A DNA stretch of 62,947 bases, counting the filler, from Collodictyon triciliatum (lineage: Eukaryota), in the NCBI GenBank assembly GCA_043381765.1. It is 10 parts of 10 records of this genome, joined end to end, with 100 filler letters (N's around TTAATTAATTAA, not from the genome) between each part and the next. Parts side by side here need not be neighbours in the genome. Positions count along the whole stretch, not along the records: positions 52,075 to 58,474 come from JBHJMP010004483.1; 9 more parts are not named here. One strand, given 5' to 3'. This document shows, in pieces, positions 52,905-54,090 of this stretch; position 1 is the stretch's first letter, and each line of letters opens with the position of its first letter. The translations under genes and the position numbers were made by a program. Below the pieces are notes generated by a model. That model did no database searches, was not told where the DNA came from, and saw only the letters and a list, made by a program, of their open reading frames with translations.

Positions 52905-53967
52905 ATGAACAAAAGAAAAAGTCTTGAGTTTGAGAATCTAAAGTCCGTAAAGCCAGACAACAGAAATTTGAAAACATCTCTAAAGTCGATTGTAAAGAAT
53001 GTGGATGACTATGGCAAAATCAACGATACGGTTTTATTGTGTCATAATTCGGTTACCGACACTTATCTGTTGGCAAGATGTTACATATTGAAATCACAAC
53101 AGCTCCCAACAATCGATGAAATGTTTTTTGTACTCTTTAAAGACAATCGGAATAATATCACAAGATAGACCCGCAAGTTTAAAACATACAGATTTGAGTA
53201 AAGACATGATGACTTTTTTTCTCAATGATTTTCGATTCCTTTTGTCTCGAGAAAAACGCATTCTGTTGGTTAGACTGTCTCATGTATTACCGTACTTGGC
53301 GAAGCAAATGTTAACAGCTTATCATAATAACATTAAAGCATTTGCAAAGAGGCTACTGTGCTTTATAAATCAAACAGTTCCTAAAGATGAGAATATTACG
53401 GAAGATACTAAAAAAGGCAGAGTTACGAAAGTTAAAAAAAAGCCATCTTCAGGAATCTCGAAATACTGGAACAATGTAAAGGATGGGCTATTACGCATTT
53501 GCATCATATCATTCCCAGCGATATTGTAAAAGGTATCGAATATGACGTCAAAGTCAATCCGAAGAAGTACATTCCATGTCTGATTTACATGAATCGCATT
53601 TTTGAGGGGATTGGAACCAAAAACTTTCTCAACCAATCTCTATAAGAACTCCCGATATATCATGTCATATTGCTCTAGATACTGCATGTTTGATGGTTCT
53701 ATTAGTATTATATGAAAATATCATTAATGAAGAATATATCAGAATGCAAAGAGACACTATGGGATAAGTTCTTTGAAATGAAAAAGAGGGCCTTTCATCA
53801 AAGAGACTAAAAATTTAAATGCATGATACAAACAGACGGCTTGGCGGTGTCACTATTGTTTTAAAAGTAAGGTATTTCAAATTCAAAATTCCAATATAAT
53901 AAAAAAAAAACCCAAGAATATGTTTATATAGATGAACTTTCCGAAGAGCAGTTTTCTTTATTAGCGA

Positions 53968-54061
<94 letters not shown>

Positions 54062-54090
54062 TGGACGCAGGTAAGTTTAATTTGGTTTAC
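52905..54090 (+). pseudogene. Fanzor1 (eukaryotic TnpB-derived RNA-guided nuclease) relic, frameshifted, ending just after RuvC-I
   Basis: Across several frameshifts, in order: LKTSLKSIVKN, LPTIDEMFF, LPYLAKQMLTAYHNNIK..KRLLCFIN, YDVKVNPKKYIPCLIYMN, QPISIRT..CHIALDTACL, WDKFF, MIQTDGLAVSLLF, YVYIDEL, a 90-nt polyA run, then VDAGKFNLVY. Confidence 0.8.

Follow-up and report, generated by a model that had tools for sequence, protein, structure and literature searches.

Does the run of broken reading frames at positions 52905 to 54093 of a stretch of Collodictyon triciliatum DNA (assembly GCA_043381765.1) descend from a Fanzor1 gene, can it still encode a nuclease, and how did it come to lie there? 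Fanzor1 proteins are eukaryotic and viral nucleases of the TnpB type, guided by an omega-RNA. The stretch, 62,947 nt long with its filler and referred to here as the window, contains nine identical artificial linkers (N44-TTAATTAATTAA-N44) that separate pieces of 6393 to 6422 bases and a last piece of 4373 bases, and from these linkers we read the window as about 10 short, separate contigs of a fragmented assembly, joined end to end. Because the linkers are artificial, pieces across a linker are not physical neighbours. The locus itself lies on the ninth piece, 52075-58474. We conclude, with a probability of roughly 0.9, that a Fanzor1 gene copy, now dead and truncated at its 3' end, lies at 52905-54093 and that it is a member of a decaying multi-copy family.

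A broken Fanzor1 gene at 52905-54093

The longest open piece of the relic (53092-53529, 145 aa) served as the query in a search of 5.8 billion proteins. Among longer proteins its best match was P0001 (E 1.6e-28, 53% identity), an uninterrupted 648-aa protein encoded on a 2.6-kb metagenome contig, and all 29 matches, obtained from 214 candidates, carry the precomputed family PF26935, which is DUF8286 by its Atlas name. Compared with all PDB chains, P0001 matched three Fanzor1 proteins of solved structure, from Guillardia theta (GtFz1, 9cer; E 2.1e-28), Parasitella parasitica (PpFz1, 9cf0; E 2.7e-24), and Spizellomyces punctatus (SpuFz1, 8gkh; E 3.7e-23), the only other rows being two myoglobins at E 0.4-0.6. 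Profile A1, built from 18 of the 29 matches with 11 near-duplicates left out, recovered the same three structures at E 7.6e-43 to 2.9e-39 and nothing else in the PDB at E <= 0.01. Both P0001 and A1 match the solved proteins over nearly their full length, although identity between these and the relic's family is low and the matches are at the profile level only. Bacterial TnpB (IS200/IS605, IS607) and Fanzor2 belong to the same RuvC-plus-zinc-finger nuclease superfamily as the relic's family, but no TnpB, Cas12, or Fanzor2 structure was matched by P0001 at E <= 1 or by A1 at E <= 0.01.

Applied to all 2811 six-frame pieces of the window, A1 matched seven (E 5e-25 to 4e-3), which follow each other in colinear order; among the rest the lowest E value was 1.5. 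A profile made without P0001 (17 sequences, the giant-virus-contig cluster) still matched five window pieces at E 1e-13 to 7e-4. The match between the relic and this family is far above chance.

The positions invariant in A1 are D364 (VDPGK), G521 (GDW/GNW), E555 (NExxTSK), the cysteine pairs C562/C565 and C587/C590, and D604 (RDxNSAxNI), and the intact relatives share with the solved Fanzor1 proteins the motifs (V/I)DPGK, NE(F/C)xTSK, CxxC...CxxC, and RDxNSAxNI as well as a Gly at the old RuvC-II site. For comparison we used excerpts of the Fanzor1 literature, among them Saito et al. 2023 (PMC10432273) and Xu et al. 2024 (PMC11423790). The invariant Gly and Glu fit the rearranged RuvC-II of Fanzors, in which, according to the excerpted text, the canonical Glu has become Gly or Pro and an alternative Glu lies downstream (PMC10530073), and they fit the conserved G500/E536 of Fanzor1 that a passage from 2013 pointed out (PMC3627910). 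The catalytic triad of Fanzors is given in another such excerpt as D-E-D, with the Glu between the fifth strand and the TNB domain (PMC11423790). In a Pfam search, P0001 and three relatives showed sub-threshold similarity to Cas12f1-like_TNB (PF07282; E 0.0035-0.11).

When P0001 was aligned to the window by tblastn, its residues 1-373 proved colinear with 52905-54093 on the plus strand, in three frames (aa 1-78 at 52905-53132, aa 77-194 at 53125-53472, aa 180-359 at 53436-53975, and aa 358-373 at 54046-54093). A frameshift-aware alignment written for this analysis gave 200 identical residues at 354 aligned positions (56%) and placed four frameshifts, near 53130, 53434, 53607, and 53711, three of them in or beside homopolymer runs (T6, A8, G4). 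TAA codons stand in frame at 53808, 53862, and 53868. A poly(A) tract of exactly 90 nt (53969-54058) occupies the place where P0001 has Lys-Lys-Ile-Val-Gly, and beyond it the frame resumes as RVDAGKFNLVY; this RuvC-I motif, VDAGKFNLVY, keeps the catalytic Asp (GAC at 54064), and its conserved Pro has changed to Ala. Homology ends at 54093: neither tblastn nor A1 found a family match anywhere in 54094-58474, even at E 10, and the same searches found the RuvC-II region (P0001 aa ~374-572, with G521 and E555) nowhere in the window. About 275 codons of the ~648-codon gene are missing from the relic's contig.

An earlier note, made from the sequence alone, had called this locus a dead Fanzor1 relic on the strength of a series of colinear motifs, and its description holds up well. 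The quoted motifs are present in the order given, on the plus strand of 52905-54090, and the frameshifts, stops, 90-nt tract, and Asp codon are as it described them; the missing 3' part of the gene was not mentioned there. The outcome that it had named as refuting the reading, the lack of a significant Fanzor/TnpB profile match, did not arise: a match to Fanzor1 is obtained by way of P0001 and A1, which reach the three solved proteins at E 4e-23 to 8e-43. With four frameshifts, three TAA codons, the 90-nt poly(A), and the truncation at 54093, the relic has no uninterrupted frame, and because it is broken and lacks RuvC-II, the zinc finger, and RuvC-III, no nuclease can be made from it. Compared with the solved Fanzor1 proteins, what the relic still has is RuvC-I and the REC/WED part; a single catalytic motif out of three survives. 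It is a fragment of a Fanzor1 member and not a functional member. The parts of the relic are listed in Table 1 together with the other features of this region.

Table 1. Parts of the Fanzor1 relic, the second Fanzor1 fragment, and the artificial linkers, in window coordinates
Feature	Positions	Strand	Remarks
Upstream non-coding stretch before the relic ATG	52600-52904	+	Repeated in other copies; part of the 5' region of the element
Relic segment 1	52905-53132	+	aa 1-78; basic N-terminus MNKRK and start of REC/WED; E 1.7e-16, profile positions 1-82
Relic segment 2	53133-53433	+	aa ~78-178; contains YLAKQMLTAYHNNIK; follows +1 shift at T6 run near 53130; E 5e-25
Relic segment 3	53436-53606	+	aa ~180-238; YDVKVNPKKY..LIYMN; follows shift at A8 run near 53434; E 2.4e-16
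Relic segment 4	53609-53710	+	aa ~239-272; HIALDTACL; follows shift near 53607; E 1.9e-7
Relic segment 5	53712-53968	+	aa ~273-358; WDKFF, IQTDGLAVSLLF, YIDEL; TAA at 53808, 53862, and 53868
Poly(A), 90 nt	53969-54058	+	Expansion at Lys-Lys codons; Ile-Val-Gly codons replaced and frame changed
RuvC-I remnant RVDAGKFNLVY	54059-54093	+	GAC at 54064; last homologous part
Poly(A)-rich contig start	58575-58640	+	At Lys-Lys codons preceding the last zinc-finger CxxC
Second Fanzor1 fragment	58641-58843	+	aa ~581-645 of P0001; CVICKEC, RuvC-III RDFKGAKNI, C-terminal tail; stop TGA 58841-58843
Linkers N44-TTAATTAATTAA-N44	6415-6514, 12927-13026, 19436-19535, 25945-26044, 32438-32537		Non-genomic
Linkers N44-TTAATTAATTAA-N44, remainder	38946-39045, 45453-45552, 51975-52074, 58475-58574		Non-genomic

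A second fragment and further copies of the family

The tenth piece of the window opens with a poly(A)-rich run followed by VYRCVICKECNRSESKQSVFLTRDFKGAKNI, and here tblastn placed P0001 residues ~573-630 (58617-58790; 59% identity, E 2e-14) and A1 matched with its positions 541-598 (E 6.6e-10). This second fragment of the family, which the earlier note had not mentioned, shifts frame once, within an A run near 58783-58792, and its tail then reads KKKQVVGSFQAAFTTTQPL, like the end of P0001. The last zinc-finger CxxC and RuvC-III, both absent from the relic, are present in it, and its RuvC-III, RDFKGAKNI, retains the Asp, with the two flanking Asn residues changed to Lys. On the same piece, short ORFs (open reading frames) at 60185-62174 (minus strand) look, from their translation alone, like the exons of an intron-split translational-type GTPase with the G1 motif GNVDSGKST, a host gene downstream of the second fragment.

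The relic and the second fragment share a strand, follow each other in the right order, and are both broken at poly(A) runs that fall on Lys-Lys codons, which might suggest that a 4.5-kb insertion had divided a single Fanzor1 copy and that these are its ends. We consider this unlikely. The two lie on different contigs, an artificial linker recurs about every 6.4 kb, and their adjacency is not physical, so the second fragment need not belong to the relic's copy; moreover, beyond its poly(A) the 5' fragment still encodes RuvC-I before its own contig turns to unrelated sequence, and no part of the window contains the ~200 codons of the middle.

Further members of the family were found among proteins of similar length to the relic piece, where the search returned three fragment proteins of 139, 143, and 137 aa with 74, 74, and 68% identity. 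An exhaustive search of 1.84 billion representatives gave 16 proteins at E <= 1e-3, and the two below 1e-10 were both such fragments. Two of the three read through the relic's 53434 frameshift without a break, and one (P0030) has a frame break at the T run of the relic's first shift. We did not use this apparent sharing of a frameshift as proof of amplification after death, since recurrent slippage is possible at a T run. In the protein searches of public data, the closest intact ORF was P0001, at 56% identity to the relic. Scanning viral contigs with P0001 matched 36 pattern stretches, none of which was confirmed.

Contig pieces of four sequencing runs were compared with the relic over 52600-53965. 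One of these runs, X3, yielded 225 contig pieces, 80-100% alike to the relic, with at most 18 distinct contigs at one site: 32 pieces at >=99%, 58 at 95-99%, 67 at 90-95%, and 68 below 90%. At 53862 other copies have G, and at 53868 they have A, so that two of the three relic stops are not present in them. Contigs of X1, X2, and X3 also cover 52600-52904, their loose ends running upstream of 52603, and in some copies joints skip the part at ~52708-52869. In one contig, from another copy, the sequence goes on beyond 53964 with no long A run, and the 90-nt tract in the relic accordingly looks like a local expansion. None of the public sequencing runs contains half of the stretch (best word shares 0.13-0.15), and among the matching runs listed none is on record as RNA; the label "RNA?" attached to X3 is a guess, from which no conclusion about expression is drawn. 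These copies point to a multi-copy family, with members of mixed age, in some source close to this organism. The suggestion of the earlier note that the lineage hosts or hosted a Fanzor family is supported by the second fragment on another contig, the three fragment proteins, and the X3 contig pieces.

Intact relatives on giant-virus-like contigs

The nearest Atlas clusters of PF26935/DUF8286 consist to 92-100% of viruses, mostly Nucleocytoviricota. A metagenome scan with A1 matched at least 595 stretches, of which at least 400 encode a relative, and 80 loci were kept. At eight long loci, 46 flanking ORFs were scanned out of 87 ORFs of >=130 aa, leaving out the Fanzor gene itself and shorter or overlapping ORFs. 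Among them were ORFs for topoisomerase II, the ribonucleotide reductase small chain, HSP70, DnaJ, the minor capsid protein P9, an Rpb3/11-like subunit, and DUF5755; the setting of the eight loci is giant-virus-like.

Pairwise comparison of 47 loci showed similarity from ~420-470 nt 5' of the ATG to ~80 nt 3' of the stop codon, beyond which it is lost. In 30 of 32 loci the units, 2.35-2.48 kb long, have inverted ends (left TTACACC..., right ...GGTGTAA) that agree at 31-37 of 40 positions; in the remaining two, the right-end pattern used was not matched. The inverted-repeat units of L001 (4638-7951) and L002 (175-3502) are larger, at 3.3 kb, each combining Fanzor1 with a DDE_3 transposase ORF on the opposite strand. 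The L002 transposase matches in three pieces and so appears broken. Homologs of DDE_3 transposases stand beside the Fanzor gene in seven of the 80 loci. Read as T-TA-CACC...GGTG-TA-A, the ends of the relatives are compatible with a TA duplication, and from them a TTAA-like TAM is predicted. The relatives differ in their carrier from bacterial TnpB elements, having inverted repeats and a DDE_3 transposase where the latter have TnpA.

The ~80-nt 3' tail of the relatives can be drawn with the stop codon inside one hairpin, with an inner hairpin that is variable, and with a stem that the terminal GGTGTAA closes; similarity is lost sharply beyond this heptamer. A covariance model (R1) was built from 33 loci of viral relatives. 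In nine further loci, kept out of its construction, it found the 3' element where the ORF ends (E 3e-13 to 5e-3), and for the P0001-like loci L001-L003 its matches at that place were weak (E 0.26-6.4). RNAalifold gave 12 pairs for the viral 3' elements, none with double-sided changes. Because its columns show no such compensatory changes, we go no further than to infer that the 3' end may act as a guide RNA. Covariation seen by eye was set aside, since the columns were out of register in the MAFFT alignment and in part belong to co-evolving inverted repeats; no proven RNA structure is claimed. On the giant-virus-like contig of locus L010, two further overlapping R1 matches lie 3 kb from the Fanzor gene (10895-11004, minus strand, E 7e-5; 10968-11077, plus strand, E 1e-3) and may represent a solo ("ghost") end or a miniature element.

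These arrangements resemble what has been described for other Fanzor1 elements. Bao and Jurka 2013 (PMC3627910) describe Fanzor1 within Tc/mariner elements that have TA duplications, among them PGv-1 from Phaeocystis globosa virus 12T and the PUl elements, and propose that large viruses spread Fanzor among eukaryotes. The intact relatives are like PGv-1-type mariner transposons in their inverted repeats, in the DDE_3 transposases of some, and in their TA-compatible ends. The relic, in contrast, lies on an apparently cellular contig and is without these inverted ends or a transposase, and from the viral cluster of relatives it is set apart by a protein identity of only 35-50% per piece.

Origin of the relic and what it means

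An intact gene of this family would have had ~650 codons, encoding a basic N-terminus, REC/WED, a split RuvC, and a zinc finger. Its active site is predicted to combine the Asp residues of RuvC-I and RuvC-III with a Glu immediately preceding the zinc finger, which stands in for the old RuvC-II Glu, replaced by Gly. The intact relatives are carried by Tc1/mariner-type (DDE_3) transposons, which move by cut and paste and end in inverted repeats of ~30 bp, and by analogy with SpuFz1 the 3' end of the relatives may supply the guide-RNA scaffold, the guide being flanking host sequence. A mariner-type carrier for the relic's own subfamily is likewise suggested by comparison with these relatives. The relic is what remains of one such gene, its N-terminal 373 codon-equivalents, in a decaying multi-copy family of an apparently freshwater protist genome. 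In S. punctatus, the excerpt of PMC10432273 lists 42 Fanzor loci with full (19) or partial genes and 134 "ghost" loci. A bolder reading, which we hold to be less likely than not, is that a single cut-and-paste Fanzor1 lineage resides both in freshwater giant viruses and in protist chromosomes and was amplified in the latter, that relics such as this one are fossils of traffic between virus and host, that dead copies may still have spread in trans as the S. punctatus "ghost" loci do, and that intact copies with a working guide RNA may persist.

Several observations weigh against the reading of the locus as a dead Fanzor1 copy of such a family. The relic piece alone reaches only E 0.073 in the PDB (GtFz1), which is not significant, and no Pfam family was found in any of the seven relic pieces, even at E 10; on the first of these counts the Fanzor1 assignment is transitive, though strong, and it depends on one bridging protein, P0001, plus the profile. 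Three of the four frameshifts, lying at homopolymers, could be assembly errors, an explanation that does not hold for the stops, the poly(A), or the truncation. The contig depths in X3 are not copy numbers, and X3 may come from another strain or species. R1 found nothing at either window fragment, its best window matches (E 1.4 and 1.5) lying in other places; the relatives from which it was built are only ~40% identical in protein, and a diverged RNA could escape it. The viral-type inverted end motif had no match in the window at <=3 mismatches, and no transposase was found there, the best tblastn match of the L001 transposase having an E value of 2.1. Most of the relatives are without a transposase as well.

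Other searches for the ends and the RNA of the element had similar outcomes. No convincing inverted pair surrounds the relic, Rfam gave no match in the window, the fold of 58790-58990 is ordinary compared with shuffled sequences (z -1.33), and blastn detected no DNA similarity between the relic or the flank of the second fragment and the 80 related loci. Two candidates were dropped: 58860-58905, compared by hand with the right ends of L001-L003, showed scattered similarity only and was not counted, and a possible left end near 52251, with ~10 of 14 bases like the viral end by eye, is not claimed.

The strength of the viral connection raises the question of whether the relic is left over from a giant-virus genome that became integrated, as an endogenous viral element, or sits on a contig that is itself viral and was binned together with the host. 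Apart from the composition of the DUF8286 clusters and the genes flanking the eight long loci, the available text of Bao and Jurka 2013 (PMC3627910) offers a precedent in virus-integrated Fanzor elements on algal and Hydra contigs. The surroundings of the relic argue otherwise. Its 6.4-kb contig has no viral gene, and the sole recognisable gene adjoining it is an intron-less FkbM methyltransferase ORF (55450-57039, minus strand, 529 codons; Pfam E 3e-14) whose nearest Atlas clusters are 100% Eukaryota (diatoms, rotifers, molluscs). The second fragment adjoins intron-split frames that resemble host exons. The relic also has no DNA-level likeness to any of the 80 viral loci, and many copies of graded divergence fit a transposon family better than a single integration. 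We consider a viral source of the relic unlikely. The gene content of the window pieces is eukaryotic-looking (Roc-COR [ROCO], kinase, NHL repeats, FkbM). Least credible, and very unlikely in our view, is a live gene in which sequencing errors or very short introns account for the frame changes and TAA is read as sense: the homopolymers at three of the four shifts and the sense codons that replace two of the three TAA in other copies would favour it, but the alignment to P0001 is gapless at the shifts and leaves no room for introns, three codons have been replaced by the 90-nt poly(A), the family match stops at 54093, short of RuvC-II, the zinc finger, and RuvC-III, and in-frame TAA near ordinary TAA-terminated ORFs speaks against code reassignment.

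Some other features of the window can be recorded here. Almost all of its pieces end in a homopolymer or microsatellite, as is typical of short-read contigs, and the relic's contig opens with about four tandem copies of a 29-bp unit (GCAAAACCAAAGGGAAACGTGGTTTTTGT, 52075-52192). Also on this contig, a dispersed short repeat, TTTTTTTTCCTTTATTCGATTCAAAG, occurs at 54322-54378 and 54582-54604, with further occurrences near 13401, 20908, and 46786. Its copy at 54337-54363 lies between perfect 15-bp direct repeats (54322-54336 and 54364-54378) and is followed ~230 bp beyond by an inverted copy, which suggests a small element resembling a miniature inverted-repeat transposable element (MITE), or a solo end; the 76 bp at 54529-54604 are 82% like 46786-46853 on the opposite strand. 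Elsewhere, an 1857-codon ORF (6821-12394, plus strand) encodes, as judged from its translation alone, dozens of WD40-like repeats, then cysteine-rich repeats and a multi-pass membrane tail.

The reading of 52905-54093 as a dead Fanzor1 copy in a multi-copy family fits what is already familiar, in that decayed Fanzor1 copies are normal in host genomes and the link between Fanzor1, mariner elements, and giant viruses has been known since 2013. What is new is only the location of such a family, decayed and multi-copy, on contigs that appear to be cellular. It marks this lineage, apparently a freshwater protist, as the carrier of a sizeable Fanzor1 family, at the same time as a related giant-virus element is very abundant, with at least 400 loci in JGI metagenomes. 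The two together may offer a case for studying how giant viruses and their hosts exchange transposons. Should there be intact copies, they would be a source of RNA-guided nucleases of ~620-650 aa with short (~80-nt) candidate scaffolds.

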